A stretch of DNA of 64,000 nt, taken from the IMG/VR virus record IMGVR_UViG_3300046529_000479; one strand, given 5' to 3'. The notes below the pieces were generated by a model that saw only the letters and a list, made by a program, of their open reading frames with translations, was not told the DNA's origin and ran no database searches. Positions 50,970-64,000 of this stretch are shown in pieces. Made by a program: the position numbers and the translations under genes. Position 1 is the stretch's first letter. Each line of letters starts with the position of its first letter. Origin of the DNA: an uncultured virus (IMG/VR IMGVR_UViG_3300046529_000479). Taxonomy: Duplodnaviria; Heunggongvirae; Uroviricota; Caudoviricetes.

Positions 50970-51500
50970 GTCTCCTTTCGTGTGTGGCGGGTTTGTGCGT
51001 GAGTATAGCTGGCTGGTGCAGCTCGCGCCCGGCCTCGCGCGCGTGCACGCGCCCGCGCACTAAAGACTTATATCCATGGTTGTGAATTGGGGTGCCTCGT
51101 ACGCGCGCGCGCGCAAAGAGCTTTTACTACTGAATAATGAGTTTTGAATGCAACGCGCGCCCCCGGCCCCGCGCGAGGCCCGGTGAAAAAACCTTCGCCT
51201 AGGCGCACGTACGCGCGTAAGCGAGAAAATCTGCATAGAGAGGTTTGGGTCGCGGGCGTACGGGTACGCGACTGCATGTGTTTTTCAGTTTTCTAAATAG
51301 GCTACTGCACGAAAAGCCTGCTAAAATGTGGTTTTTTGTCAATGTTGTGGTTTTTGCCTGGAATATTCTGTGTAATTTTGTGTAATTTTGTGGGGTGTTG
51401 GGTTTTTGTGTCAATTATGTTGTTTAGGGGTCAATTCTGGGTTTCAACGGTCAAGACCGCTTCCGTGCCGGGACTCCGGTTTCTACATTTTTCCCACGGT
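50970..51500. other. non-coding divergence region, candidate genome terminus/pac site or origin
   Basis: transcription switches direction; AT-rich, T/G-skewed 51270-51450; tandem TGTAATTTTG x2 (51371-51390). Confidence 0.45.
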
Positions 51501-51944
51501 GATCGGCGGGTCGGCGAGTCGAGAGCTCGCGCCTCGATTACCCCGATTAGCAGGGATTTTCCGCGCTTCCCCCGCTCCCGCCCGCCCCGAGGCGTAGCCC
51601 GTCTAGGCGACGTTTACCGTTTAGGCTACGGATCTCGGTTCGGAGTTAGGCGATCCCCTCCCCGCCCCCGCGCGTACCGTTCTTCGAGCCGGAGACGGGC
51701 GCCGACGTTATCCCTCGATCGTTCGAGGCGAGAGGCGGGCGGTATTAGTCGGAGGAGCCGCGCGATCGCTACGCGCGGGCTTCGCGGGGGCGGTCTACGG
51801 CTTCCCTCGCCTCGCCCGCCTTATAGCCGCCCGGGGGACTCGATCGGACGCGCGTAGGGTCGCCGTCCCCCGTAGGTAGGGGCGGCTCCCGGGCTTTAGA
51901 GCGTAGGCGCGCGAGCCGTAGACCTTCCTTCCTTCGGCGGGCGG

Positions 51945-52068
51945 TCGGAGCCTCTTAGAGAGGCTCCGAGCGTCCCGCGAGAGGCGCGCAGGGATCGACG
52001 GGGGTCGAGAGATTCGAGGCGTTCGATTCTCTCGACCCCGCTCGATCGCGCGCGCCTCGCGCGGGACG
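51945..52068 (+). ncRNA. structured leader: 25-nt hairpin followed by ~98-nt hairpin
   Basis: TCGGAGCCTCT/AGAGGCTCCGA; CGTCCCGCG/CGCGGGACG, GAGGCGCGC/GCGCGCCTC, GATCGA/TCGATC, GGGGTCGAGAGA/TCTCTCGACCCC. Confidence 0.5.
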
Positions 52069-52106
52069 GGGAATCCTCCCCGCCCCGACGAACGAAGGAG
52101 AGAAAA

Positions 52107-52514
52107 GTGTCCGTATCTAAGAAAGACGCCGCGAAAATCTCGAAGCTCGCGGCCGAAGGTAAGTCCGACGCCGCGATCGACGCGGCCGTCTATCCCGGGG
52201 AGACGGGAAAGTGGAGTACGCGGGAGATCTCCTACGCGGCGCGGCGCGACGCCTACGCGGCTTCGCTCTCGCCGAACGGCCCGAAGTACGACGGGCCGAT
52301 CGTCCCTTCGCGCCTCGGCGCGTTCGAGACGATCGAGAGCGTTCGAGCGTCCGACGTCGCGGCGGTACTCGCCGAGTCGCCGAAGCTACGCGCCTACGCG
52401 CTTCCGATCGTCTTCGGCTTCCGCCCGACTCGGGCGAACGTCGATAGGCTCGGCGGCTTCGCGGTCGCGCGGAAACGCCCCGGGCGGCTCGCCTCGGGCG
52501 CCTCGCGCGCCTAG
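52107..52514 (+). CDS. first early protein, unknown function
   Basis: ACGAAGGAG SD, GTG start; no His/Gln/Cys/internal Met. Confidence 0.7.
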   Translation: MSVSKKDAAKISKLAAEGKSDAAIDAAVYPGETGKWSTREISYAARRDAYAASLSPNGPKYDGPIVPSRLGAFETIESVRASDVAAVLAESPKLRAYALPIVFGFRPTRANVDRLGGFAVARKRPGRLASGASRA

Positions 52515-52719
52515 CAGGGATCGAGCGGGGGAAGGGGAGAGGCTCGCGCCTCGCCCCTTCGCCCCGGTCGCGTCCCGCGACCGAACGCGGAAGGAAGGAC
52601 GCAAAGCCTCGCGATCGCGAAGCCGCGCGTCCGGTTTCCGCACGCCCTCGATTCGGAAGGGTAAGCGCAAAAGAGGAAGCTACAAAAAGTTTCCTCAAAA
52701 ACGAAGGAGGGTCACGAAA

Positions 52720-53058
52720 GTGGCAAAACGGAAAAAGCCGGCAAAAAGCAGAGGGCCGGTATCATCGAAGTCCGCAAGAAGTCCGGGACAAAGCCGCGAC
52801 TCAAAGATAAGCGCGGCAACCGGAACGCCCGCAATCGACCTCGAACTAGCAAGGGCCGAAGCGTGCGACGCATTCGTCGGGAACACAAACGTAGTGTTCT
52901 TCAAGAAGAAGCGCACTAAGCGTACAAAGCTCGGGCCTGCCGGATCATGGTACAATGGCCGAGCTGAGAGCGGCGAAAAGTGCGGAGCACTCGCGATAAT
53001 GTCCAGATACAAAGACGGTAAGCGAGTTCACCGCTGCGCGAATCACATCGCGTCGTAA
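52720..53058 (+). CDS. basic early protein with Cys/His cluster
   Basis: ACGAAGGAGGGTCA SD; K/R-rich; C...C...HRC..H. Confidence 0.65.
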   Translation: MAKRKKPAKSRGPVSSKSARSPGQSRDSKISAATGTPAIDLELARAEACDAFVGNTNVVFFKKKRTKRTKLGPAGSWYNGRAESGEKCGALAIMSRYKDGKRVHRCANHIAS

Positions 53059-53071
53059 CGACAAAGACGCG

Positions 53072-53113
53072 CGTTGAAGGTCGAGCGACGGACAACCCGC
53101 TCGGCCTTGAACG
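53072..53113 (+). repeat. G.G hairpin element 1 (GGACAAC loop)
   Basis: CGTT-G-AAGGTCGAGCG acggacaacc CGCTCGGCCTT-G-AACG. Confidence 0.8.
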
Positions 53114-53137
53114 ACAAACGAAGGAGGGTACAAACAG

Positions 53138-53299
53138 ATGACATACGCGATCCAGTCGTCAGGCAGCGGGCAGCCGCCCGTAATGACGAACATCATCGCT
53201 GAGTTCGCGACGGAAGCAGAAGCCGTCACGACACTCGCTCGACTATTCAAGTCGAGTCCAGTTCGCAAGAACTACCTCAGCATCGTGAAAGTCAAGTAG
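53138..53299 (+). CDS. 53-aa hypothetical protein (not in ORF track)
   Basis: SD GAAGGAGGG; MTYAIQSSG...SIVKVK. Confidence 0.6.
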   Translation: MTYAIQSSGSGQPPVMTNIIAEFATEAEAVTTLARLFKSSPVRKNYLSIVKVK

Positions 53300-53343
53300 C
53301 GAGCTGAAGATCGGGCAAGGACAACTGCCCGGTCTTGAGCACG
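53300..53343 (+). repeat. G.G hairpin element 2 (GGACAAC loop)
   Basis: GCT-G-AAGATCGGGCA aggacaac TGCCCGGTCTT-G-AGC. Confidence 0.8.
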
Positions 53344-53369
53344 ATACCGATACACGAAAGGAGGGTACA

Positions 53370-53468
53370 GTGTACAAATGGAAAGACGCTTGGCCGACAT
53401 ACATCACTGCTCTGCCAATCGTCGTAATCGCATGTGCGCTCATTGGGCGCGCGATCTCACATCTGTAG
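53370..53468 (+). CDS. 32-aa membrane peptide (not in ORF track)
   Basis: SD AAAGGAGGG; MYKWKDAWPTYITALPIVVIACALIGRAISHL. Confidence 0.55.
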   Translation: MYKWKDAWPTYITALPIVVIACALIGRAISHL

Positions 53469-53511
53469 CAGAAGCTGCGTCGTGGACAACCGACGCGGCT
53501 TGTACTACAGA
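53462..53511 (+). repeat. G.G hairpin element 3 (GGACAAC loop)
   Basis: TCTGTAGCA-G-AAGCTGCGTCG tggacaac CGACGCGGCTT-G-TACTACAGA. Confidence 0.85.
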
Positions 53512-53530
53512 CAACAAACGAAGGAGGGTC

Positions 53531-53860
53531 ATGAAGCCAGAGTTCATAGAGAAAGTCTGGACAGCAACTGACCGCGAAGTCAAAGCTGACTGGATCGCCA
53601 ATCAGTATGAAGGCGAATATGTCAGCCCTCACTGGACAGTGGCTGGCGTCCAAGGTGATCAGATCATCTTCTACTGTTACGCAGAGCAACTCGGATATGA
53701 AATCTGTGTCTGGATCAGTGATTTCGATCCTAGCAACCGCTATGGCGGCGGCGAAGGGCTTGAAAGCAGACCGACATTGCGAGGAATCGTAATGTGTATT
53801 GAAGGCGAATGCGGCTGGATCAGCATCAAGGATCACAGTATCGTCAACAACTGCAACTGA
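53531..53860 (+). CDS. hypothetical protein
   Basis: ATG directly after ACGAAGGAGGGTC. Confidence 0.65.
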   Translation: MKPEFIEKVWTATDREVKADWIANQYEGEYVSPHWTVAGVQGDQIIFYCYAEQLGYEICVWISDFDPSNRYGGGEGLESRPTLRGIVMCIEGECGWISIKDHSIVNNCN

Positions 53861-53902
53861 TAGAAGCTGCTACTCAGGACAACGAGTAGCGGCTTGTGTC
53901 AG
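53857..53902 (+). repeat. G.G hairpin element 4 (GGACAAC loop)
   Basis: CTGATA-G-AAGCTGCTACTC aggacaac GAGTAGCGGCTT-G-TGTCAG. Confidence 0.85.
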
Positions 53903-53948
53903 AAGACATGACACAGTACCACAAAATGAAAAATCGAAGGAGGGTCAA

Positions 53949-54272
53949 ATGAAAGGCGCATTCATCACCATACTGCTACTCGGCAGTCTCTTTGTCGGGG
54001 GCGGAGCATTCGCACTTCACGGGATCACCGCCGCGAGCGACAAGTCAAGTGCTCAGGTCGATCCCAACACTTTCGCAGTCCTGCCAATCGGCGTCAGCGA
54101 AAGCTACGTGAGAAGTTCATTCGGAACTCCTCAGAGCAGCGACGACACAACTGTCGGCGGCTACGGCAGCACGTTGAACAGCCGTTGTATCTACTACGGC
54201 ATCCTCAGCCAGAACGGCAGTTATCAGTTCTGCTTCGACAACGGCAAGCTCGTCTCGAAAAGCAGGTATTGA
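53949..54272 (+). CDS. exported SmpA/BamE-like small domain protein
   Basis: N-terminal TM/signal; IG.S...V...FG.P...Y.....F.F.NGKL..K. Confidence 0.55.
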   Translation: MKGAFITILLLGSLFVGGGAFALHGITAASDKSSAQVDPNTFAVLPIGVSESYVRSSFGTPQSSDDTTVGGYGSTLNSRCIYYGILSQNGSYQFCFDNGKLVSKSRY

Positions 54273-54318
54273 GTAGCAGCTCTGTCAGATAGAATCCGAC
54301 AGGGCTGGTGTTCAATAC
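54266..54318 (+). repeat. G.G hairpin element 5
   Basis: GTATTGAGTA-G-CAGCTCTGTC...GACAGGGCTG-G-TGTTCAATAC. Confidence 0.85.
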
Positions 54319-54339
54319 AAACGAAGGAGGGTCAGCACG

Positions 54340-54627
54340 ATGGAAGCCAAGAAAGGCGAAGTCTGCGTGGTGTCCAGCATTCCTAATTGTGATTTCTGCA
54401 ATCAGGAGGGCACGAAGACGCCAGGCCCGTACGACTTCAAGACGCGGTTTGGCCCGTGGGCTCACGGATGTGAGGATCACTGGAAGCTGTACCGTGCGTT
54501 CGACAGCCTCGGTGTTGGGCAGGCTCAGATCTGGATCACGAAAGATGAGGAGCCGAAGCACGCGCCAGGTACACTAGGCGCGATCATGTCCAGCAAGACG
54601 AACAGGTTGAACAAAGAACTGGGGTAG
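54340..54627 (+). CDS. hypothetical zinc-binding protein
   Basis: CDFC...YD.KT..GPWA..C..H...LG.G. Confidence 0.6.
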   Translation: MEAKKGEVCVVSSIPNCDFCNQEGTKTPGPYDFKTRFGPWAHGCEDHWKLYRAFDSLGVGQAQIWITKDEEPKHAPGTLGAIMSSKTNRLNKELG

Positions 54628-54685
54628 TGACCAGTGGCTCCGTCATGGAGATCAGGGACGTTCGACATGGCGGGGCCGGTGTTCA
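54628..54685 (+). repeat. G.G hairpin element 6
   Basis: TGACCA-G-TGGCTCCGTCATG...CATGGCGGGGCCG-G-TGTTCA. Confidence 0.85.
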
Positions 54686-54705
54686 TCACCAACAGAAGGA
54701 GGGTC

Positions 54706-55059
54706 ATGAACGAGGAGCAAGCAGATTTCCTTGTGAAGTTCCGCAAGGAGAATCCGCCACAACCAGTACCAGGACGAGAAATGACTGAGGAGCAGTTTCG
54801 TGCTGATCTCAATGGCGTAGCAGAACGAACAGCCAAAGACATCGGTGGCGACTATCCTCACATCGACACAGGCTTCGAGTGCTACGTGTACAAGATTGAC
54901 GGCAGATTCGTCGGCTACATCTACATGGGTGAAGCTGGCGAGTGGGCCCTCATCGACAAGTTCGATCAGTTCGACACCTGTGACGAACCGGACACACAGC
55001 TTCACGACGCACCCGAGTATCTCCAACGCGTCAAAGCGCTGTCGCCATACAAACGGTGA
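54706..55059 (+). CDS. hypothetical protein
   Basis: ATG after AGAAGGAGGGTC. Confidence 0.65.
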   Translation: MNEEQADFLVKFRKENPPQPVPGREMTEEQFRADLNGVAERTAKDIGGDYPHIDTGFECYVYKIDGRFVGYIYMGEAGEWALIDKFDQFDTCDEPDTQLHDAPEYLQRVKALSPYKR

Positions 55060-55102
55060 CCAGCGGCGGGCCGGGAGTTGTCCCCCGGCCTGTCGGTGTT
55101 CA
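55057..55102 (+). repeat. G.G hairpin element 7 (loop GTTGTCC)
   Basis: TGACCA-G-CGGCGGGCCGGG agttgtcc CCCGGCCTGTCG-G-TGTTCA. Confidence 0.85.
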
Positions 55103-55120
55103 TCAAACGAAGGAGGGAAC

Positions 55121-55489
55121 ATGGCAATTGTAAGCTGTTTCGACTGCCCACAGTCCATGATGACGACAGGTGTCGCAGGCGACGATGTCAGAACGTGGAT
55201 CTGCTCGGAGTGCGCTCACGAGCGCGGGCTCACGCCTAAGCTCGCAGAGCGTGTTGCGATCGAAGACGCCAAGTGGGGCAACCCATGCTGCATCTGGGAA
55301 GCATGTCCCAAGGACGTCATGAAGCAGATCCTGATTCCGATCACAGACAACATCGAGATCGAGGCAGAGAACGCCGGCATCGAAGAAGACAATCCCAACC
55401 GCGACTCATGGATGGCACACAAGATCTCTCATCGACTCGTCGGCGTCATGAACCACATCTGGTTCGGCCCGGAGGTATTGCTCCGATGA
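55121..55489 (+). CDS. hypothetical protein with zinc ribbon
   Basis: SD ACGAAGGAGGG; CFDC...CSEC. Confidence 0.6.
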   Translation: MAIVSCFDCPQSMMTTGVAGDDVRTWICSECAHERGLTPKLAERVAIEDAKWGNPCCIWEACPKDVMKQILIPITDNIEIEAENAGIEEDNPNRDSWMAHKISHRLVGVMNHIWFGPEVLLR

Positions 55490-55728
55490 CAGTAGGCAAG
55501 TTCGAGATCAGAACGTGGTACGACGGCAGAACCCACAACCAGTTCCGCAAAGTAGCGGAAGTCGAAGCACCGACCGCACTTCATGCCCTGCGTGCTTACG
55601 CGGGGAACAGGCAAGCGATCATTCGACAGCGCAAAACGGACTACAGTGACGCCAAAGACTGGACAGCCACGATCCTAAACAAGAACGGAAAGCTGCGCGA
55701 CTACATCGCTGTTCGGGTACGCAACTGA
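55486..55728 (+). CDS. hypothetical protein
   Basis: ATGA-coupled (MTVGKFEIR...). Confidence 0.55.
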   Translation: MTVGKFEIRTWYDGRTHNQFRKVAEVEAPTALHALRAYAGNRQAIIRQRKTDYSDAKDWTATILNKNGKLRDYIAVRVRN

Positions 55729-55769
55729 TCAGCCGCTGGCACATCGCAGAGTGTGTTGGCGGGTGCTCA
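55726..55769 (+). repeat. G.G hairpin element 8
   Basis: TGATCA-G-CCGCTGGCACA...TGTTGGCGG-G-TGCTCA. Confidence 0.85.
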
Positions 55770-55828
55770 TCCGAGCATCATCCGAAGGAGGGTCAAATGA
55801 TACGACTGGGGAACAGAACCGATCGAAG

Positions 55829-56053
55829 GTGAGTGTCGTGAAGTTCATCTTCATCGACATTCCCGGCTCGATTCTCATACTGTGTTTCATTCTCGGCTGG
55901 TGGTCGAGACATAACAAGGTAGTCAAGACCGTGTTCTTTGACGGGAACGAACCAGTGAAGTCGAAGCCGATTACGCCCAAGCGGATTCCAGTTCCCAAGG
56001 CTTCAAAGCCGAAGCTGTACATCGTTCGAGATCAACCAGGTAGTGAAGAGTGA
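55829..56053 (+). CDS. small membrane protein, preceded by an 11-codon mini-ORF (55797-55832)
   Basis: hydrophobic N-terminus; GTGA overlap with the mini-ORF stop. Confidence 0.5.
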   Translation: MSVVKFIFIDIPGSILILCFILGWWSRHNKVVKTVFFDGNEPVKSKPITPKRIPVPKASKPKLYIVRDQPGSEE

Positions 56054-56098
56054 ATAGCGGCTCCACAGGTCAGCTACGATCTGTGGGGCCGGTGTTCA
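56051..56098 (+). repeat. G.G hairpin element 9
   Basis: TGAATA-G-CGGCTCCACAGGTC agctac GATCTGTGGGGCCG-G-TGTTCA. Confidence 0.85.
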
Positions 56099-56126
56099 TA
56101 AGACGCCACGAAGGAGGGCCAGCAAA

Positions 56127-56510
56127 ATGCCACTCAACATCTATGTGGAGCGAAAAGGCAAGCGTCGCAAGGATCTCATCTGGGATCAGCAGATGCTTGA
56201 CTTCTGCTACACCGTGGCCTACATGGACGAAGATGCTGACCGGGAATATCAGACTGGCAAGAAGTTCGCTGACCTCGGCACCTGGACATTCGATCCAGAC
56301 AACAAGCTCGGATCGAAGTGGTCAGGGCAAGAGTTCGAGCACTATGTCACTTTCCAATTCGGTGTGTACTACATCGAGGGTGATTGTGGCCTGGTGGAGA
56401 AGGGCGAGCAAGTTGTTAAGCACAAGCATCGCTTCCTTCATTCACAGATGGAAAAGCCAGTCGTGTTCATGCCCGGAGACAGAATCGTCGCATGGAGGTC
56501 ACACAAGTGA
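56127..56510 (+). CDS. hypothetical protein
   Basis: SD ACGAAGGAGGG. Confidence 0.6.
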   Translation: MPLNIYVERKGKRRKDLIWDQQMLDFCYTVAYMDEDADREYQTGKKFADLGTWTFDPDNKLGSKWSGQEFEHYVTFQFGVYYIEGDCGLVEKGEQVVKHKHRFLHSQMEKPVVFMPGDRIVAWRSHK

Positions 56511-56728
56511 TCAAGGTCAAGATGACGCAAGAGGCATTCAACACCATGACGACTGCACAGAAGCACAGCATTGATGTTATCCTGAACAATCCGAAACTTG
56601 AAAACGTGGTTGTTCAGAAAGGCGGACTCGATCTGCCAGACAACTATCTGTGCTTCACGATGCACTGGACGGATCATGGCCAGCCGATTTATGGCGGCAT
56701 CTCGCCCCAAGGCCAGGTGTCGACATGA
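56507..56728 (+). CDS. hypothetical protein
   Basis: GTGA-coupled, GGAGG SD. Confidence 0.55.
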   Translation: MIKVKMTQEAFNTMTTAQKHSIDVILNNPKLENVVVQKGGLDLPDNYLCFTMHWTDHGQPIYGGISPQGQVST

Positions 56729-56961
56729 TCACGTTGGAGCAAGCAAAAAGCCTGAAGCGTGGCCAGATCCTTCACCACGACATCAACAGGAACAGCGATG
56801 GCACTTGCCAACGCTGGAAGGTGAATGGTCAAGTGCAGACATGGAAGCGTGAGCCCAACCGGGTTCGCGTGCCCATTAAACACGGGCTGAGGCACTACGA
56901 TGCTCTTGATAGCCAAGGTGATCTCGATCTCGTTCATCTCGAAAGCGAGTGCCCGGGATGA
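56725..56961 (+). CDS. hypothetical protein (MITLEQAK...WKVNG.V.TWK..P..V.VP.KHGL)
   Basis: ATGA-coupled. Confidence 0.55.
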   Translation: MITLEQAKSLKRGQILHHDINRNSDGTCQRWKVNGQVQTWKREPNRVRVPIKHGLRHYDALDSQGDLDLVHLESECPG

Positions 56962-57101
56962 GACTCGTTGGCTACTGCACCGTTTGCCACAAGATCAAGT
57001 ACGTCCAAGTCACCGGCCACGACCTGGCCATGGCTCAGGCTCGTGGTAGCAACGTCGTGTCTGGAATCTGCGACGACTGCGAGAAAGAGCAAAGGAAGTG
57101 A
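56958..57101 (+). CDS. 47-aa zinc-ribbon protein (not in ORF track)
   Basis: MRLVGYCTVCHK...GICDDCEK; ATGA-coupled; its stop begins element 10. Confidence 0.55.
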   Translation: MRLVGYCTVCHKIKYVQVTGHDLAMAQARGSNVVSGICDDCEKEQRK

Positions 57102-57147
57102 GTAGCGAGTCTGTCCGTCCGATGGATCGGATAGGCTCGGTGCTCAC
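57098..57147 (+). repeat. G.G hairpin element 10
   Basis: GTGAGTA-G-CGAGTCTGTCCG...CGGATAGGCTCG-G-TGCTCAC. Confidence 0.85.
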
Positions 57148-57179
57148 CAGGCACCAGTAACAACAACCGAAGGAGGGTT

Positions 57180-57869
57180 ATGCCACCATTGATCGAGACG
57201 TCACCGGGCGTGCTGGAGTTCGCACTCGATCGTGTGGGTGATGACGCAGTTGAGATCCTGGAGCTGTCGTACAACGACATCCCCTGGAGCTGGATCTGCG
57301 GCACGCTCACGCGAGCCTGTGTGCTCAACGGGCATAAGAAGCCCGAGGGCTGCGCTCTCGGCCTGATCGGCATGAACGGCGGTCTGGCTAGCTTCTCTAC
57401 CAGAGTAGTGAGGCTGTGGGACAACGAGATCGGCAAGGACGTGCCGACTGGACAGTACGAAGTCCAGGGCATCTTCGAGCAGAGCGATCTGTACGCGACT
57501 TCAACGACAGCAGAGGCGATCGTATGCCTCGCGCTGGCGATCCCGAAAGAGATCACCGTCAGTAAGGCTGGCTGGTACAACGAAGTCGATGAGGCGTACG
57601 ACAAGTGGGCGGATAACATCCCTCACGACGTTTCAGGAGCTGCCGACTGCGTTGTCGCCTACAACGACGACGACATCACGAGAGGCGATGCAGCGTCGTG
57701 GTTCTGCAACGCCATCGGCATCGCACGTCTGCGCCGATCCGCCGGCAAGCAGGCCTCGACGTGGATGCAGGACGAGGACGGCTGTGAAGATCCGTCTTGT
57801 CAGCAGTGCTACCCGACCAACAGCGACACCGAAGACGCTTTGGTCGAGATGTACGAGGGCGACGCCTGA
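57180..57869 (+). CDS. hypothetical protein, paralog of 60576-61088
   Basis: W.CG.L....NG.KKP.GCA.GL, LALAIP, YND.....A..WF. Confidence 0.65.
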   Translation: MPPLIETSPGVLEFALDRVGDDAVEILELSYNDIPWSWICGTLTRACVLNGHKKPEGCALGLIGMNGGLASFSTRVVRLWDNEIGKDVPTGQYEVQGIFEQSDLYATSTTAEAIVCLALAIPKEITVSKAGWYNEVDEAYDKWADNIPHDVSGAADCVVAYNDDDITRGDAASWFCNAIGIARLRRSAGKQASTWMQDEDGCEDPSCQQCYPTNSDTEDALVEMYEGDA

Positions 57870-57909
57870 CCAGCGAGTCCATCCCAACAAGGATGGGCTC
57901 GGTGTTCAG
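57866..57909 (+). repeat. G.G hairpin element 11
   Basis: CTGACCA-G-CGAGTCCATCC caacaa GGATGGGCTCG-G-TGTTCAG. Confidence 0.85.
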
Positions 57910-57932
57910 ACAGAACACCAGAAGGAGGGTCA

Positions 57933-58208
57933 ATGGACGAAGTCAGATCAGACAAGTTCACGGTCAACGACGATCTTGAGACGATCTCGTTTCACGACGA
58001 AGCGCAGCCGACGCTCATGCTGGCATGGATCAGCGACGATGCGAAGAGCGATCGCGGCTCGTTCTTCATCGCGGATTCAGAGAGCGAAAAGATCTTCAAG
58101 GTCACCCCGAGTCTTCACGACGATGGCATCAGAGTGATCCTGAAAGTCGATTCGCTCCACCGAGACGGCGTTGTGGAAGACAGCGCCATGATCATCAGCG
58201 TGTTCTGA
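57933..58208 (+). CDS. hypothetical acidic protein
   Basis: SD AGAAGGAGGGTCA. Confidence 0.6.
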   Translation: MDEVRSDKFTVNDDLETISFHDEAQPTLMLAWISDDAKSDRGSFFIADSESEKIFKVTPSLHDDGIRVILKVDSLHRDGVVEDSAMIISVF

Positions 58209-58411
58209 TGCCACAGATAGTTACTCTCCATCAGGACGAGTCAGAGATCATCGTTGCTGACACCAAGGGCAACCCGATGTTCAAGCTCAAGTTCGATAAC
58301 ACGGACGCGGGCTGCGAGCTGATGGTTGACATCTGGTACCCGAAGCTGCTCAGCCCCGACAAGTGGGTGGGCAACTTCGGAGACGAACCATTCATCTACG
58401 AGCCAACCTGA
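58208..58411 (+). CDS. hypothetical protein
   Basis: TGATG-coupled (MPQIVTLHQD...). Confidence 0.55.
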   Translation: MPQIVTLHQDESEIIVADTKGNPMFKLKFDNTDAGCELMVDIWYPKLLSPDKWVGNFGDEPFIYEPT

Positions 58412-58457
58412 TCAGCGAGTCTGTCCGTCCGACACGACGGGTAGGCTCGGTGCTCAG
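58408..58457 (+). repeat. G.G hairpin element 12
   Basis: CTGATCA-G-CGAGTCTGTCCGTC cgacac GACGGGTAGGCTCG-G-TGCTCAG. Confidence 0.85.
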
Positions 58458-58485
58458 CCGAGCATCAACCACGAAGGAGGGGAGT

Positions 58486-59016
58486 ATGGCAACGACAGCC
58501 TGGACAGAGGATCCAGCATCGGAGAGCCAGCTAGAGTTCATCCACGACCTCTCACAGAAACACGAGATGTCGGATGAGCAGGCTGAGTTCATTGCCCGAG
58601 TCCATCTCGGTGGACGGAAGCTCACCAAGGGTGAGGCCAGTCGAATCATCGACGGGCTAAAGGCATGTCCCAAGAAGCAGGTCAGTAGAGATTGGCCTGA
58701 TGTCCCGGCCGGCAGGTATGCCGTGGTCGATCCGATGGACGATGTCCTGAAGTTCTACCACGTAGACAAGCCGACTGAGGGCAAGTGGGCAGGCTACACC
58801 TTCCTGAACGTCCGTGCTTCGGATGAGCGTTATCCGATCAAAAACACGGAGCACAAGAAGTCCATCATGACCGAGATCTCCAAGAATCCGGCAGAAGCCA
58901 GCATGCGCTACGGGCGTGAGCTGGGCAAGTGCGGGATTTGCGGACGGACTCTCACCGATGAGCAGAGTCGAGCAAGAGGCATCGGCCCGATCTGCGCAGC
59001 GAAAGAGGGTTGGTGA
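58486..59016 (+). CDS. DUF6011-like zinc-finger protein
   Basis: CGICGRTLTD..S..RGIGP.C; N-terminal AS..Q..FI..L...LTK.EAS.II. Confidence 0.65.
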   Translation: MATTAWTEDPASESQLEFIHDLSQKHEMSDEQAEFIARVHLGGRKLTKGEASRIIDGLKACPKKQVSRDWPDVPAGRYAVVDPMDDVLKFYHVDKPTEGKWAGYTFLNVRASDERYPIKNTEHKKSIMTEISKNPAEASMRYGRELGKCGICGRTLTDEQSRARGIGPICAAKEGW

Positions 59017-59219
59017 TGGCGCAAGTGAACATCAGCGTGACTCGTGTCGGACACGTCGTGACGGTGAAGACCGCCAGCAACAAGGAGATCTTCAGCGTTG
59101 AGTACAAGAACCGAGGAGAGATCATCGATTACTGTCTCTGGCTCGCTCGTACTGGCAACGTCAACGCCGACCGCCAGACGATCGTGGATCTGCTGAAGGC
59201 CAACAAGGTGATCACATGA
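59016..59219 (+). CDS. hypothetical protein
   Basis: TGATG-coupled. Confidence 0.5.
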   Translation: MAQVNISVTRVGHVVTVKTASNKEIFSVEYKNRGEIIDYCLWLARTGNVNADRQTIVDLLKANKVIT

Positions 59220-59350
59220 ACGAGTTTCGCTGGTATCTGCGGCGACTCTCGCTCGATGAGATCCTCGGCCTAGTCAGAACAGGGAACGTGCCCAAAACGT
59301 TCATGCCTGCGATCCTCTCTGAGTTGAAGAGAAGGAAGTACGCATCATGA
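59216..59350 (+). CDS. 44-aa hypothetical protein (not in ORF track)
   Basis: ATGA-coupled at both ends; MNEFRWYLRRLSLDE... Confidence 0.5.
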   Translation: MNEFRWYLRRLSLDEILGLVRTGNVPKTFMPAILSELKRRKYAS

Positions 59351-59544
59351 GCTACACGTTCACTCACTGGAGCGATCGCTTCGGCGATCAAGTCAGCAAG
59401 ATGCGCGAGGCTGAAACGGGTGAAATCTACCTGACCATGCGCGACGAGTGCGACGAAGATCTGTTGCACGACTGGTACATGGTGGGGATGAAGCCAAAGG
59501 AAGCAGCCAAGCGGTTCATGGCCGGGGAAGCGCGTGCGAAATGA
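59347..59544 (+). CDS. hypothetical protein
   Basis: ATGA-coupled. Confidence 0.5.
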   Translation: MSYTFTHWSDRFGDQVSKMREAETGEIYLTMRDECDEDLLHDWYMVGMKPKEAAKRFMAGEARAK

Positions 59545-59620
59545 GACACGTGTATCTTCTGCTGTTCGAGATCCTCGTTCTGCTTCATCATGTCAAGGAC
59601 GCGATCGAGCTGGTGACGCC

Positions 59621-59845
59621 ATGAGTACACCAAGGCCGATTCCAGTTCCTCATTCCAGCAATGTCAAGTCGATCTCTTGGGACAGTGACAAGAGCATCAT
59701 GTACGTCACGTACAAGAGCGACAAGACGTACGCCTACACAGGCGTGCCATACCAACGTGCCGTTGTGGCTGCTAACGCTCGAAGCGTCGGCAGCTATATC
59801 AACAAGCACATCAAGCCGCACTACCCCGTACAGCAGGTCGGGTAG
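59621..59845 (+). CDS. KTSC-domain protein
   Basis: SSNVKSI.WD.....YVTYKS..TYAY.GVP......A.SVGSY.N.HIK..Y. Confidence 0.8.
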   Translation: MSTPRPIPVPHSSNVKSISWDSDKSIMYVTYKSDKTYAYTGVPYQRAVVAANARSVGSYINKHIKPHYPVQQVG

Positions 59846-59894
59846 TTGCAGCTCCCGGTGTCTCTGCGGTCACCGGGGGCTGGAGTCACCCGAC
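59837..59894 (+). repeat. G.G hairpin element 13
   Basis: GTCGGGTAGTT-G-CAGCTCCCGGTG...CACCGGGGGCTG-G-AGTCACCCGAC. Confidence 0.85.
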
Positions 59895-59925
59895 TCCGAG
59901 TACAGCGAAGGAGGGTCATGCTGAA

Positions 59926-60174
59926 GTGACGAATCCGCCGAAGCTCCTCAAGATCAAAGTCGTTCCGTATGATGAGGCTGATGTCACAGCTGCGATCCAG
60001 CTTCCGGTGTTACCAGAAATGATGGATTGGGAGCACGACCTCATCTTCAAGATCGACAACCGTGTGATCTTCGGCTTATTCATCCATCGCCACGAGAGCG
60101 GTGACATCGGAGTCGAATTGTTCGACCCGGATAGCACCGAGCCCGTGGCGACTCACCAGTTCACGGAGGCATAA
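59926..60174 (+). CDS. hypothetical protein, preceded by a 3-codon mini-ORF (59918-59929)
   Basis: ATG CTG AAG TGA overlaps the GTG start. Confidence 0.55.
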   Translation: MTNPPKLLKIKVVPYDEADVTAAIQLPVLPEMMDWEHDLIFKIDNRVIFGLFIHRHESGDIGVELFDPDSTEPVATHQFTEA

Positions 60175-60434
60175 TGGTCGTACAGCAGGAACAGGAGAAC
60201 GTCGTCTTGTACAACATCGAGGCGATCGTGGTCGAGGAAGCAGGCGACAACGCCATCTATTCGATCGCCAAAATGAGACCTACAACCGGCACTGACCGAT
60301 TCAAGCCCGTCGAGTTCTTCAACGACGAGCATGAGAATCGTTGGGTGAAGTTCTGGCCCAAGAACGGCCCTGCAAAGGGCAAGCAGGCCAGCATCCCGAT
60401 CGAACGCCTGGTCATGGTGGTGCACAGCAAGTGA
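60174..60434 (+). CDS. hypothetical protein
   Basis: TAATG-coupled, GGAGG SD. Confidence 0.55.
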   Translation: MVVQQEQENVVLYNIEAIVVEEAGDNAIYSIAKMRPTTGTDRFKPVEFFNDEHENRWVKFWPKNGPAKGKQASIPIERLVMVVHSK

Positions 60435-60507
60435 CACAACCGCCAATCTTCCTATCGCCGCGTTGGTTCCGCATAATGTGGCTAATTATTCGGGAGCGTT
60501 GGCGAAA

Positions 60508-60549
60508 GTGATCAGCGGGTCTGTCCTTCGGGGCAGGCCCGGTGCTCAT
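60508..60549 (+). repeat. G.G hairpin element 14 (cUUCGg loop)
   Basis: GTGATCA-G-CGGGTCTGTCC ttcg GGGCAGGCCCG-G-TGCTCAT. Confidence 0.85.
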
Positions 60550-60575
60550 GAGAGTACCGTAACGAAGGAGGGTCA

Positions 60576-61088
60576 ATGCCGAGAATGACAGCCAAGGTCG
60601 TCCTGGAGGAGTCCATCCTGGACATCAGGGCCGGACACTGGCTCTGTGGCGAGCTGATGCAGGAAGCAGAAGCCAACGGAAACAAGAAGCCAGATGGTTG
60701 TGCCGTCGGCCTCGCGGTCATCAACTCGAAGCTCGCGCGTGTCGTCATCGCGAAGTCTGACGACTACGATTCGGGTTTGATGGCATACTGCCCGTCGATC
60801 AACAACCCGTCGGTCTACTTCAGAGGCGACCAGAACTACCCCAAGGCCAGATTGAAGGCACTGGAGAAGTCGCTGCTTGCACTCGCGTTGGCGATCCCTG
60901 TCGATGCTCGACCCGTGACGACAGAATACAGAGGCGACGAGTACGAAGACCAACATATCAGCAACGATGACATCAAGGGCTACAGCATCGAGCAGCTGGA
61001 GTCGCTCATCATCGAGTACAACGACTCCAGCCTCGACACGGGCACGGCGATGAACTGGTTCAAGGCAGCGTACAGCAGCCTCAAGTGA
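60576..61088 (+). CDS. hypothetical protein, paralog of 57180-57869
   Basis: shared motifs NG.KKP.GCA.GL, LALAIP, YND, WF. Confidence 0.65.
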   Translation: MPRMTAKVVLEESILDIRAGHWLCGELMQEAEANGNKKPDGCAVGLAVINSKLARVVIAKSDDYDSGLMAYCPSINNPSVYFRGDQNYPKARLKALEKSLLALALAIPVDARPVTTEYRGDEYEDQHISNDDIKGYSIEQLESLIIEYNDSSLDTGTAMNWFKAAYSSLK

Positions 61089-61126
61089 GCTGCGAGTCTA
61101 CCCACTAGGGTAGGCTCGGAGTTCAT
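61085..61126 (+). repeat. G.G hairpin element 15
   Basis: GTGAGCT-G-CGAGTCTACCC acta GGGTAGGCTCG-G-AGTTCAT. Confidence 0.85.
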
Positions 61127-61148
61127 CAGAACTCCAGAAGGAGGGTCA

Positions 61149-61481
61149 ATGCTCAAGGAAGAAGCTGGCTGGGTTCAGTCATTCGAGTTTCCAGGGCTCA
61201 AGGTCGTGCAGATGAAGCTATGTGAGGCCTGCAAGATCAAGTTCGATACTCACAACCAGGCCTGCATCCATGTCGCCAAGGAACACCCGAAGCTGCTCCA
61301 GATCGACAACGGCGATCTCACGGTTGTCCGTCTCGCACAAGAGCCGTACAACCAGCGCGAGCGAACGCTCACGACTCGCCAGTACCTGCTCTACAAGGGC
61401 GAGCCGGTCGTGGCAGCAGGCTACCAGGTCGAGAGCTTCGCTGAAGGCGCAGCATGGGCGCTCAAGGAGTTGTCGAGATAA
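61149..61481 (+). CDS. hypothetical protein
   Basis: SD AGAAGGAGGGTCA; CEAC...H..C.H. Confidence 0.6.
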   Translation: MLKEEAGWVQSFEFPGLKVVQMKLCEACKIKFDTHNQACIHVAKEHPKLLQIDNGDLTVVRLAQEPYNQRERTLTTRQYLLYKGEPVVAAGYQVESFAEGAAWALKELSR

Positions 61482-61532
61482 CCATGCCGGTCGAAACCCC
61501 TGGTAATCAAAGGGTTTCGGCCGGGATGGTTG
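61479..61532 (+). repeat. G.G hairpin element 16
   Basis: TAACCAT-G-CCGGTCGAAACCC...GGGTTTCGGCCGG-G-ATGGTTG. Confidence 0.8.
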
Positions 61533-61603
61533 GCTAGCCATCCCGCCACTTGTATAGTATCATACTAAGTGGCTGAAATCCACCACTACCGAAGGAGGGA
61601 TCC

Positions 61604-62119
61604 ATGGCCAGGATCGCAGCAGAGCTGGAGCCAGCTCTGGTCACGAAAGCGGTGAAGATCGTCAAGCCGCTGAGAGACGCCAAGGACAGCGCCAAGTTCG
61701 ACGCGCTGCAGTCGGCTCTCAAGGTCGCGAGGCCGATGGCGGCCCGGTATCTCTACGTTGCCGAGGCGGTGATCGACCCAGCTCTGAAGTTCAAGCTCAC
61801 AGCCGCTAACATCAACAAGGCTCGTGATCGTGGACTGCGCTGGGAGCGCATCGCGGCCTACACCGGCTCCACAGTGCCGGAAGTTCAGGCAATGTTCGTG
61901 GAGAACGGTGGGGACATGTCCAAGTCCTACACGGGCAGGGGCAAGCGTCCCGACGGCGTGCCGGCCGACGGCAAGCCTGCCAGGAAGCCGACTGCCAAGG
62001 AGACCAAGGCAGCGGCCGCAGCGGCGAAGCGTGGCCCCGGTCGTCCCAAGGGCAGCAAGAATCGGCCCAAGCCGGATGTCAAGGTGCGTCGGAGGTCGTC
62101 TCTCCCAACGCGCCCTTAG
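61604..62119 (+). CDS. basic DNA-binding protein with HTH-like segment and AT-hook
   Basis: GLRWERIAAYTG.TV.EV; KRGPGRPKGS. Confidence 0.55.
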   Translation: MARIAAELEPALVTKAVKIVKPLRDAKDSAKFDALQSALKVARPMAARYLYVAEAVIDPALKFKLTAANINKARDRGLRWERIAAYTGSTVPEVQAMFVENGGDMSKSYTGRGKRPDGVPADGKPARKPTAKETKAAAAAAKRGPGRPKGSKNRPKPDVKVRRRSSLPTRP

Positions 62120-62151
62120 TTCACATCGACATCGATGATGAGCTGAAGGCG

Positions 62152-62523
62152 TTGCTAGAAGGCAGGAGCGTGCGTACTCGGAGCGAACTCATGAACATTG
62201 ATGAAGAAACTTCCATCACGTTCAATAACGAAGTGTTCTGCGCCAAGTACATACGCTTCCTGCCTGCTGGCCAGACGTCATCAGGCTTCCGAAAGCAGCC
62301 ACTCGTCCAGTTTTACTCTGACCGAATGGTGGATCGAGGACGTGAGATCCACACGAACATGCGAACGGTTGGGCTGGAGGATGTGGTCGGGATCAAAGGA
62401 CTTACTGACGCTCAGATAAAAGCGATCGTTCAGGACGTTCGGAACAACAGACTGCCCGAGCAACCACGCTCTGGCGTCAAAGTTGTATCCAAGACCCGGC
62501 GACGGAGCCAAATCAGGAAGTGA
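62152..62523 (+). CDS. hypothetical protein
   Basis: ORF in operon orientation; start uncertain. Confidence 0.45.
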   Translation: MLEGRSVRTRSELMNIDEETSITFNNEVFCAKYIRFLPAGQTSSGFRKQPLVQFYSDRMVDRGREIHTNMRTVGLEDVVGIKGLTDAQIKAIVQDVRNNRLPEQPRSGVKVVSKTRRRSQIRK

Positions 62524-62555
62524 GCAGTGGGCGGGCTTCGGCCCGCCCTATGCTC

Positions 62556-62655
62556 CTGCTGCACGAGGCGGGAGGGGATGGGCAATACGGCCGTAACGGG
62601 CACTGCCTGAGGACACTCTAGGTGAACCCGTGTCCCACCCCGCCTCGTGGAGCAG
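62556..62655 (+). repeat. G.G hairpin element 17 with large structured insert
   Basis: CTGCT-G-CACGAGGCGGG ...~65 nt... CCCGCCTCGTG-G-AGCAG. Confidence 0.65.
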
Positions 62656-62680
62656 AAGCTCCAATGAGAAGGAGGGTCAG

Positions 62681-64000
62681 GTGAGTAAAATCACCGCTGA
62701 ACTCTCGCCAGATGGGAAACGTATCTGGCTCCGGTTCAGCTATGAAGTCCGTATCAAGGACACCATCAAGTTCAAGGTGCCCAACAGCCGGTTCGTTCCA
62801 CCTGAGAAAGGTGGCCCGGCTTGGACAGTGCCTCTCGATCTGCCGACTGGCCGCATCCTGCGTCATCTGTTCCAGCAACAGCTCGTGCTGGGCCCGAACC
62901 TGCTCCAGTGGGGCAGGGACGAGGTTCAACGTGAGCGGAACCTGTCGGGCCTCGCGCTCGCAGAGGATGCGGAGCTGGTGTACTGTCCGGTCACAGTTCC
63001 TGGTATCGTTGAGCTAATCGCAGGCGACGGGACTGAGAACTGGCCCGATCGACCGTACCAGCGGGCAGACATCGCGTTCCTGGCGGCGACTAACGCCGGC
63101 AACCTGAACCAGATGGGCCTCGGGAAAACCATCGAAGTCATCGGTGCGATCCACGAGGCTCAGATGGAACGCGGAGAGCACTTGATCATTGCACCGAAGA
63201 CTGCTCTGGAGACTGTCTGGCGACTTGAACTGGAGCGGTTCACCGAGATCCCGGTGTTCACGCTCTACAGCGAGACATCTGCGAAGGAGCGCAACGCGCT
63301 GCCTGAGCAGATCATGGAAGCCATGGGAGTCTATGGAGGATACGCTTTCGTCACGACCGCGAGCATGCTACGCTCGAAGTCGTGGCGAGACGTGTTCATG
63401 GAAGCTAACTGGACGAGCATCACCATCGACGAGTACCACAAGACGGGACTCTGCGAGGGCTCGTCTCAGTTCTCCAAGCTAGCAAAAGCCATGATACGGC
63501 CTAACGGCCAGAAACGCATACCTATGAGCGGTACGCCCATGGGTGGCAAGCCAATTAAGCTCTGGTCGGCGCTGAACTTCATCGACCCCGACAGGTTTAG
63601 CTCGAAGTGGAAGTGGGCTGAACAGTGGCTGGTGATCGAGGAGGGTTTCAGGAACCACAAGATCATCATGGGCCTGAAGCCCGGCATTGAAGAGGCTTTC
63701 TATGCTTTTCATGCGCCATACCTCGTGCGCCGTCTCAAGTCGGAAGTCGCGAGCCAGCTGCCTCCGAAGCAGCAGGTGGAAGTCATGTGTGATATGACCC
63801 CGAAGCAGAACAAGCAGTATCGCGAATTTGCGCGAGCTGCCGAAATCCGCATCGAGGATCTGCACCTGTCTGCCACCAACATCCTGACGGAGTACCTGCG
63901 GTTGAAGCAGTTCGCCAACGCAGTCTGTCTCGTCCACGAGTACGAGGTAGCATGCAAGCACAAGAAGAATGAGGGCATGCTACACGGATGCGAAGACTGC
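62681..64000 (+). CDS. SNF2-family helicase (truncated by window end; absent from ORF track)
   Basis: GTG after AGAAGGAGGGTCA; my translation shows RPYQ, MGLGKT, IIAPK, IDEYHK, SGTP, VRRLK. Confidence 0.85.
   Translation, partial: MSKITAELSPDGKRIWLRFSYEVRIKDTIKFKVPNSRFVPPEKGGPAWTVPLDLPTGRILRHLFQQQLVLGPNLLQWGRDEVQRERNLSGLALAEDAELVYCPVTVPGIVELIAGDGTENWPDRPYQRADIAFLAATNAGNLNQMGLGKTIEVIGAIHEAQMERGEHLIIAPKTALETVWRLELERFTEIPVFTLYSETSAKERNALPEQIMEAMGVYGGYAFVTTASMLRSKSWRDVFMEANWTSITIDEYHKTGLCEGSSQFSKLAKAMIRPNGQKRIPMSGTPMGGKPIKLWSALNFIDPDRFSSKWKWAEQWLVIEEGFRNHKIIMGLKPGIEEAFYAFHAPYLVRRLKSEVASQLPPKQQVEVMCDMTPKQNKQYREFARAAEIRIEDLHLSATNILTEYLRLKQFANAVCLVHEYEVACKHKKNEGMLHGCEDC

Follow-up and report, generated by a model that had tools for sequence, protein, structure and literature searches.

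The window analyzed here is a 64,000-nucleotide stretch of DNA from an uncultured tailed phage (IMG/VR record IMGVR_UViG_3300046529_000479), in which the phage genome is read across its own ends. The structural genes lie on the minus strand, at about 16 to 50 kb of the window. A plus-strand block of about 30 small ORFan genes starts near 52.7 kb and leads to a gene for an SNF2-type helicase at 62681; after the helicase, the block resumes at the start of the window with genes for a nuclease, a primase-helicase, DNA polymerase III alpha and ThyX. Between the small early genes lies a repeated RNA hairpin element with a mutually exclusive second hairpin, and this two-state module is the subject of the present analysis. 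The helicase is about 32% identical to helicases of Streptomyces phages, and the terminase is 38% identical to those of Arthrobacter phages. No relative among isolate phages was found by a search for near DNA matches with positions 53000-63000 or by a more distant search with one element, and the DNA of the window occurs in soil and rhizosphere metagenomes, with no RNA run among the data sets found to contain it.

The elements are tied to a strong Shine-Dalgarno (SD) sequence. The motif GAAGGAGGG was found in 18 copies, against 0.68 expected, of which 17 lie on the plus strand at 52.7-62.7 kb, and each copy stands a few bases 5' of a start codon. The wider SD context, GAAGGAGGGTCA, is kept beyond the need of pairing with rRNA. 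A simple detector, requiring at least seven uninterrupted pairs flanked by a G opposite a G and then by at least two more pairs, found the first hairpin, H1, in front of 16 out of 18 SD sites on the plus strand at 52.0-62.7 kb; at the SD of 52703 a different hairpin stands in its place. The elements form the borders of groups of overlapping genes.

Including its base, H1 comprises about 18-26 base pairs around a single G.G mismatch, and its base begins at or beside the stop codon of the upstream gene. Read 5' to 3', its consensus starts with a stop codon (mostly TGA) and two further bases, followed by A or T, G, C and the upper stem; after the loop and the second strand of the upper stem come G, G, T or A, G, Y, T, C, A. 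X denotes the 5' base strand and S, typically GGTGYTC or GGAGYTC, the 3' base strand. The second hairpin, H2, consists of S paired with a downstream segment, D, just 5' of the SD. It starts at the G directly before the mismatched G, engages 4-10 bases of S, and leaves D ending a median of 7 nt (range 1-20 nt) 5' of the SD. To locate this start, 8 upstream bases were added, and these pair elsewhere once they are cut from H1. State A denotes the full H1, and state B the retained upper stem with H2 abutting it. The 17 elements of the window are as follows, with p values from the shuffling of tails described below and with the minimum free energy (MFE) fold where it is given.

53072..53113, plus strand: element 1, H1, G.G at 53076/53109; no H2 (p 1.0)
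53303..53340, plus strand: element 2, H1, G.G at 53306/53337; no H2 (p 1.0)
53466..53507, plus strand: element 3, H1, G.G-flanked stem of 11 bp with an interrupted base; no H2
53857..53902, plus strand: element 4, H1, G.G at 53863/53896, base including the TGA stop, GGACAAC in the loop; the MFE fold is the full H1
53895..53915, plus strand: element 4, H2, TGTGTCA/TGACACA, 7 bp, -8.6 kcal/mol, p 0.007; SD at 53936-53944
54266..54318, plus strand: element 5, H1, G.G at 54276/54308; no H2 (p 0.67)
54632..54681, plus strand: element 6, H1, G.G at 54634/54679; the true stop is TAG, followed by the element's in-frame TGA
54678..54690, plus strand: element 6, H2, GGTG/CACC, 4 bp, weak, p 0.09; SD at 54695-54703
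55061..55098, plus strand: element 7, H1, G.G at 55063/55096; no H2
55730..55765, plus strand: element 8, H1, G.G at 55732/55763, base reaching the TGA at 55726
55762..55779, plus strand: element 8, H2, GGTGCTC/GAGCATC, 7 bp with one G.U, p 0.001; SD at 55784-55792; the MFE fold is upper H1 plus H2
56050..56099, plus strand: element 9, H1, G.G at 56057/56092
56091..56107, plus strand: element 9, H2, GGTGTT/GACGCC, 6 bp with two U.G, p 0.02; SD at 56110-56118
57098..57147, plus strand: element 10, H1, G.G at 57105/57140
57139..57155, plus strand: element 10, H2, GGTGC(T)/(G)GCACC, p 0.022; SD at 57169-57177
57871..57904, plus strand: element 11, H1, G.G at 57873/57902, base reaching the TGA at 57867
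57901..57919, plus strand: element 11, H2, GGTGTTC/GAACACC, 7 bp, p 0.004; SD at 57921-57929; the MFE fold is state B
58413..58452, plus strand: element 12, H1, G.G at 58415/58450
58449..58466, plus strand: element 12, H2, GGTGCTC/GAGCATC, p 0.012; SD at 58473-58481; the MFE fold is state B
59845..59886, plus strand: element 13, H1, G.G at 59848/59883, GGAG type
59882..59897, plus strand: element 13, H2, GGAGTC/GACTCC, p 0.004; SD at 59907-59915
60513..60544, plus strand: element 14, H1, G.G at 60515/60542
60541..60558, plus strand: element 14, H2, GGTGCTC/GAGTACC with one G.U, p 0.001; SD at 60564-60572; the MFE fold is state B
61085..61126, plus strand: element 15, H1, G.G at 61092/61119, GGAG type
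61118..61135, plus strand: element 15, H2, GGAGTTC/GAACTCC, p 0.001; SD at 61137-61145
61479..61532, plus strand: element 16, H1, G.G at 61486/61525
61524..61543, plus strand: element 16, H2, GGATGGTT/AGCCATCC, extendable to 10 bp; SD at 61591-61599
62556..62655, plus strand: element 17, H1, long and branched, G.G at 62561/62650; stop codon 40 nt upstream, with another hairpin in between
62649..62662, plus strand: element 17, H2, GGAGC/GCTCC, p 0.003; SD at 62668-62676

An earlier sequence-only reading had noticed that the 3' base strand of H1 can alternatively pair with the segment before the SD and had listed twelve such pairings. All twelve were found at the places given. The extent of one was corrected, as the TGCTC/GAGCA of element 8 is in reality the 7-bp GGTGCTC/GAGCATC with one G.U, and another, the GGTG/CACC of element 6, is present but weak with its 4 bp (p 0.09). 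That reading would have fallen had H2 been no commoner than in shuffled controls. When the 8-nt shared strand S was fixed and the tail up to the SD was shuffled 1000 times, H2 proved commoner than in the controls, reaching p<=0.05 in 11 of 16 window elements (element 6 gave 0.09 and four had none) and in 31 of 39 elements across five related phage records. The summed energy of H2 was -404.0, compared with -168.8 +/- 12.6 in the shuffles, the lowest of which was -212.6 (z -18.6). Furthermore, when tails were swapped among 35 elements the energy fell from -359.6 for own tails to -203.6 +/- 13.9, a value of the former size being reached in 0 of 5000 trials; D therefore matches its own S. With a looser detector, 18 of 20 G.G hairpins from four more distant records had H2 at p<=0.05 (15 of 17 without three duplicates), and new versions of S/D appeared among them, such as CGTACGC/GCGTACG and AGTGGCC/GGTCACT.

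Both pairings of S were examined with a covariance model built from 22 elements, which matched the window and related loci 41 times (35 of these matches being distinct), always on the coding strand; the ten in the window all lie on the plus strand at 54267-61138, within the early small-gene block. The alignment, fitted to the upper stem and H2 and thus leaning towards H2, has its H2 columns paired to 96.8%, as against 78.9 +/- 1.8 in shuffles (0 of 500) and at most 56% when slid. Covariation in H2 was 0.481 versus 0.211, and six of the seven pairs were changed on both sides. The X-S pairing at the base of H1 reached 86.7% versus 67.5 +/- 2.2 (0 of 500 shuffles), and this test is unaffected by the leaning of the fit because X was left unpaired in the model. 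An independent count, in which hairpins were chosen by their longest stem only, gave 182 of 231 in-register pairs at the H1 base versus 94.6 +/- 6.9.

It had also been claimed that the downstream partner varies together with the GGTG or GGAG type of the shared strand, and the alignment bears this out: column 67/94 holds UA 15, AU 14 and UG 5 times. The same column of S, read against the 5' strand, gives AU 20 and UA 14 with none unpaired. At S position 2, 20 rows have A-T-A or A-T-G as the triplet of X partner, S and D partner, and 14 have T-A-T; such three-way covariation was seen at S positions 0, 2 and 3. Altogether 27 distinct S/D combinations occur among the 35 rows, and 27 helices of H2 that were scored pair by pair contain 167 Watson-Crick pairs, 19 G.U pairs, one bulge and no other pair (no A.C). 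Folded as the sense strand, H2 was more stable than its reverse complement in 30 of 31 cases, by 2.8 kcal/mol on average. Because the non-Watson-Crick pairs are all G.U and all matches lie on the sense strand, H2 acts as RNA and not as a DNA palindrome. By this pattern of compensatory change, the H1 base and H2 pairings are both real and under selection.

Two positions of H1 behave otherwise. In the model-based alignment the mismatch column is G.G in 33 of the 35 distinct rows, with one G.A and one U-A, and the column five pairs inside it is U.G in 25 and C.G in 10 of the 35, with no other pair. Counted over 39 elements, the U.G wobble stands there in 24, and this is the sole position enriched for wobble. 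Unlike these two, the other positions of the stem vary freely. A near-invariant G.G and a wobble column with only U.G or C.G are what a recognition mark would predict.

The same H1/H2 architecture with other sequences was found in the viral contig L120 and the metagenome contig L121, whose helicases are 76% and 79% identical to that of the window, in L122 and further loci of the same record (helicase 45% identical), and in three more distant contigs with a near copy of one of them; a 59.9-kb contig (L221/L274) was found by pattern. Among helicase relatives at 37-42% identity, no elements were seen in the three examined (L123, L124 and L125), L126 being left out. A loose pattern scan of viral contigs gave more than one match in 0 of 119 stretches and no relative by motif counts, and a second scan found the G.G hairpin in 3 of 120 stretches, one of them a clear member of the family by eye; most matches of such loose scans were due to chance. 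The family spans at least eight genomes of uncultured soil actinophages, with about 55 natural sequence variants. No Rfam family matched anywhere in the window at gathering score, and at E<=1 the region 52500-62750 gave one unrelated sub-threshold match only, inside a gene.

Several individual elements show how the parts change. In the elements at L122 2522-2579 and L144 856-913 (minus strand), S position 1 has gone from G to A and D has followed from C to T, so that H2 is kept; on the 5' strand one of the pair keeps G, giving G.A, and the other has T, giving a full pair. Because D follows S here, the H2 pairing seems, from these substitutions, to be conserved more strictly than the bases that form the mismatch. 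A diverged relative (L293 and the reverse strand of L299, record G008) has two U.U mismatches at the place of the U.G wobble; as far as this variant tells, the spot may need only to be non-Watson-Crick and not U.G specifically. The H1 loops of elements 1 to 4 (53072-53902) all carry GGACAAC and those of later elements are unrelated to it; the first element of L120, at about 1330, has ACGGACAAA in its loop. The orthologue of element 7 in L120 (SD 3534) has a 7-bp pairing at the place of H2 that does not go beyond the shuffles (p 0.11-0.13).

How the two states relate was examined by folding. In constrained ensembles the energy of state B exceeds that of state A by a median of 1.7 kcal/mol (range -3 to +8), and the MFE folds of the 12 listed elements are state A in eight and state B in four. 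At equilibrium in intact RNA, median probabilities are 0.96 for the base pair beside the mismatch and 0.03 for H2, the probability of H2 exceeding 0.5 in 4 of 31 elements. When X and the next six bases were held single-stranded, it exceeded 0.5 in 29 of 31, with a median of 1.0. H2 is thus predicted to be latent, forming almost only when the 5' base strand is unavailable. The proposal of two states gains from this, since S has two mutually exclusive partners that both covary and the second is hidden until X is masked. As H2 covaries yet hardly forms in intact naked RNA, a state with the 5' strand occupied or gone must therefore recur. Such a recurrent X-free state is the strongest support for the two-state idea, and it does not choose between triggers.

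Control of the SD by the second structure was not supported, as there is no systematic shift of accessibility between states: the probability of the SD being unpaired was 0.58 in state A, 0.59 in state B, 0.53 with the 5' strand masked and 0.61 in RNA truncated at S. Nor does H2 control a terminator, for none follows the elements; no intrinsic terminator was found at any of them, and the tails after S are only 14% T. Several other roles were tried and rejected. Masking of the SD by D fails in that only D of the GGAG type pairs with it (4 bp in element 15) and accessibility does not shift. A decoy role for S, with D as a mimic of the anti-SD, fails on the versions of S that are not SD-like (TGTGTCA, CGTACGC, AGTGGCC and GGTAGC). 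Hidden promoters or terminators were not enriched, with 5 promoter-like sites versus 3.7 +/- 2.4 and 10 terminator-like sites versus 9.9 +/- 2.9 in shuffles. The only promoter-like site inside an element is a sigma-70-like site at 61530-61558 (TTGGCT, 17 nt, TATAGT), whose -35 is overlapped by the H2 loop of element 16. The same element is followed by a third hairpin (61530-61590), also present with different sequence in L120 (8840-8900) and L121 (3640-3680), and the gene that follows codes for a conserved protein whose tail is rich in lysine and arginine.

The switch put forward by the sequence-only reading is therefore partly supported: the two states are supported, SD control is not, and the trigger may be either processing or the ribosome. 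Processing or decay of the RNA, with loss of the 5' strand, is tentatively taken as the trigger of H2, being slightly favoured over a ribosome-operated switch because the SD is unaffected, no terminator is present, and H2 is kept in elements whose stop codon is far away and in those of the element 17 type. In the proposed mechanism the module would be a two-state intercistronic RNA of the phage early polycistronic mRNA. X would be lost through an RNase III-type cut at the helix marked by G.G and U.G or, alternatively, through 5'-to-3' trimming brought to a halt by H1. A 3'-terminal hairpin would stay on the upstream cistron, and H2 would provide the downstream one with a base-paired 5' end, with the SD left free. 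Hairpins at the 5' terminus protect RNA against RNase E and RNase J, and H2 at the new 5' end would shield the message from 5'-end-dependent attack by these two enzymes. A terminating ribosome would also flip most elements transiently, which is taken as a side effect and not as the selected function.

The ribosome is the main competitor, and both sides turn on the stop codon. In 27 of 39 elements it starts 3-12 nt 5' of the mismatch (mode -6, 13 cases), and as a rule its TGA pairs with the TCA of S, so that a ribosome terminating in these elements has to open the base. A model can be drawn in which the ribosome unwinds X and S snaps onto D, so that H2 would mark recently translated mRNA and couple downstream translation or mRNA survival to upstream translation; the G.G, standing at the second step of branch migration, would slow re-invasion by X. 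In its favor, element 6 keeps its own TGA straight after the real TAG stop, masking of X lifts the median probability of H2 from 0.03 to 1.0, and the states are close in many elements (median difference B minus A of +1.7, MFE in state B in 4 of 12). Against it, accessibility of the SD is the same in both states and no terminator follows, so that an output at either is missing. H2 occurs in 11 of 12 stop-far elements and in 20 of 27 stop-near ones, some of the automatic stop calls behind these counts being doubtful. Furthermore, elements of the element 17 type (window, L120 and L274) keep H2 with the stop codon 38-44 nt upstream behind another hairpin, and a ribosome footprint masked at the true stop of these three orthologues, in three genomes, leaves the probability of H2 at about 0; a relay from the stop-proximal hairpin to H1 was considered for them and is not predicted. 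The earlier suggestion that a ribosome could melt the G.G stem agrees with the placement of most stops and not with the element 17 type; the other suggestion of that reading, cleavage with a 5'-protective hairpin, would fit the unchanged SD, the stop-far elements and the element 17 type better. Overall, the ribosome-operated latch is judged rather doubtful.

Several points weigh against processing in turn. In 27 of 39 elements the base of the helix includes the stop codon, a placement that a ribosome switch requires and processing does not. Five of the 17 window elements (those with SD at 53120, 53357, 53520, 54323 and 55109) have no H2, and alike processing would be expected for all. No ribonuclease or RNA-binding domain was found among 47 proteins searched with Pfam and 37 searched with PHROGs. 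An RNase III site spans about two helix turns with a non-paired spot; H1 with its base has roughly 18-26 pairs around one G.G, and the internal loops of the RNase III sites of coliphage T7 are a far larger interruption than a single G.G. Finally, the argument from the element 17 type rests on one orthologous group.

A reading in which every early gene boundary is a termination-sensing latch, slow to flip back because of the G.G, and in which the memory of translation decides whether a nuclease cuts at the G.G/U.G helix, is improbable. If true, the fate of an mRNA would be coupled to its history of translation across the genome and without any protein, in up to 17 copies per genome.

Operation by a protein is held to be unlikely. 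Here a phage or host RNA-binding protein would read the G.G/U.G helix or the freed X and shift the balance between states A and B, and T4 RegA and RegB are examples of regulators acting on the translation or stability of early genes. The fixation of G.G (33 of 35) and U.G (25 of 35) next to otherwise free stem positions is in line with this, as are the confinement of the elements to the early small-gene block and the over-conserved SD context noted above. It lacks a candidate, since the early proteins have no informative match in Pfam or PHROGs.

That there is no switch at all, H1 and H2 being static decay barriers or insulators and the repeats mainly recombination points for early cassettes, is held to be quite unlikely. 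The elements do bound groups of overlapping genes, and in a related strain (run X15) joints fall at elements or SDs (53118>53371, 54702>56122, 56099>60563 and 57086>60536). These are 4 of the 14 joints listed for that run, and their sides are short (22-39 nt), so that repeats can produce them. The contigs of that run join the window across whole gene cassettes, with inserted letters that resemble further H1/H2 elements, and the joints are a weak hint of cassette shuffling. Three-way covariation at S positions 0, 2 and 3 would not persist in a by-product, and H2, which almost never forms in intact RNA, cannot be a static barrier. Very improbable is a role at the DNA level, with H2 as a palindromic operator for a dimeric protein or the elements as promoters or terminators: several H2 look like 7-4-7 palindromes and the sigma-70-like site overlaps element 16, but 19 G.U versus no A.C, the greater stability of the sense strand in 30 of 31, the 27 versions of S/D and the lack of enrichment of promoter-like and terminator-like sites all speak against it.

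Structured punctuation between cistrons has precedents in T7, in T4-type phages and in Cluster K mycobacteriophages; the present case is a repeated, covariation-supported bistable module. In coliphage T7, RNase III hairpins lie between the early genes; the upstream 3' end keeps the hairpin and the downstream message is released. The present elements are alike in being interrupted hairpins between cistrons of an early polycistronic mRNA, with the same outcome proposed, and unlike in having a single G.G, 17 copies in 10 kb and a cleavage that is only proposed. To our knowledge, a latent second hairpin drawn from the base strand is not part of the T7 sites. In leaders of the trp and ermC type, one strand has two exclusive partners and a ribosome stands on the first; unlike there, the second structure here makes no terminator and neither masks nor unmasks the SD. 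For such a module with its fixed G.G/U.G signature, no match in Rfam and no description in the literature searched was found.

Among systems described in actinobacteriophages, the nearest is that of the SAS and ESAS of Cluster K mycobacteriophages. According to the original account, the SAS is a conserved SD-containing motif at starts of non-structural genes, about half of the sites have an inverted repeat of variable spacer in front of them, and departures within the ESAS arms do not, in the authors' view, support RNA pairing (PMC3203893). A later account reads ESAS as SigA-like promoters with an operator-like repeat (PMC11373665). The present elements share the conserved SD motif at non-structural starts, and differ in the motif itself and in their covarying arms (both sides changed in 16 of 18 pairs), versus a 13-bp consensus and sequence-conserved 17-bp arms without compensation; promoter-like sites, as given above, are not enriched. 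The PeSL cassettes of T4-type phages combine a strong sigma-70 early promoter with a terminator stem-loop and take part in cassette shuffling (PMC2839356). They resemble the present elements as repeated stem-loops that flank small non-essential early ORFs and to which strain differences map, the latter being a weak hint in the present case, and differ from them in that the present elements have no promoter (bar the site at element 16), no U-tract and a two-state fold. Terminators without poly-U were reportedly found by Ingham et al. in 1995 in the early region of actinophage phiC31; they are an analogy, as hairpins that lie between genes of an early operon of an actinophage and lack a U-tract. 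A requirement of mycobacterial RNA polymerase for a U-tract is reported in one study (PMC3993855).

With about 55 variants, the family is a good system for asking how processing or translation history sets the stability of cistrons in Actinobacteria, where work on the biology of RNase E and RNase J is still in progress. It is also a possible source of compact insulator parts for polycistronic expression in Streptomyces-type hosts.

Further observations were made around the elements. Between the divergent late and early regions lies a block of 68-71% G+C (51500-52700), versus 50-56% downstream, which holds one open reading frame (ORF; 52107-52514) without a family match; 5' of this block, T-rich direct repeats (TTGTGTAATTTTGTG, twice) occur at 51340-51440. 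The genes at 57180-57869 and 60576-61088, both with an element in front of them, encode paralogous early proteins (27% identity over 159 residues, E 1e-13), neither of which has an informative Pfam or PHROGs match. At 55797-55840 and 59918-59929, the first ATG after a strong SD opens only a mini-ORF (11 codons in one case and 3 in the other), whose stop overlaps or directly precedes the GTG start of the real gene, an arrangement that looks like leader-peptide coupling.

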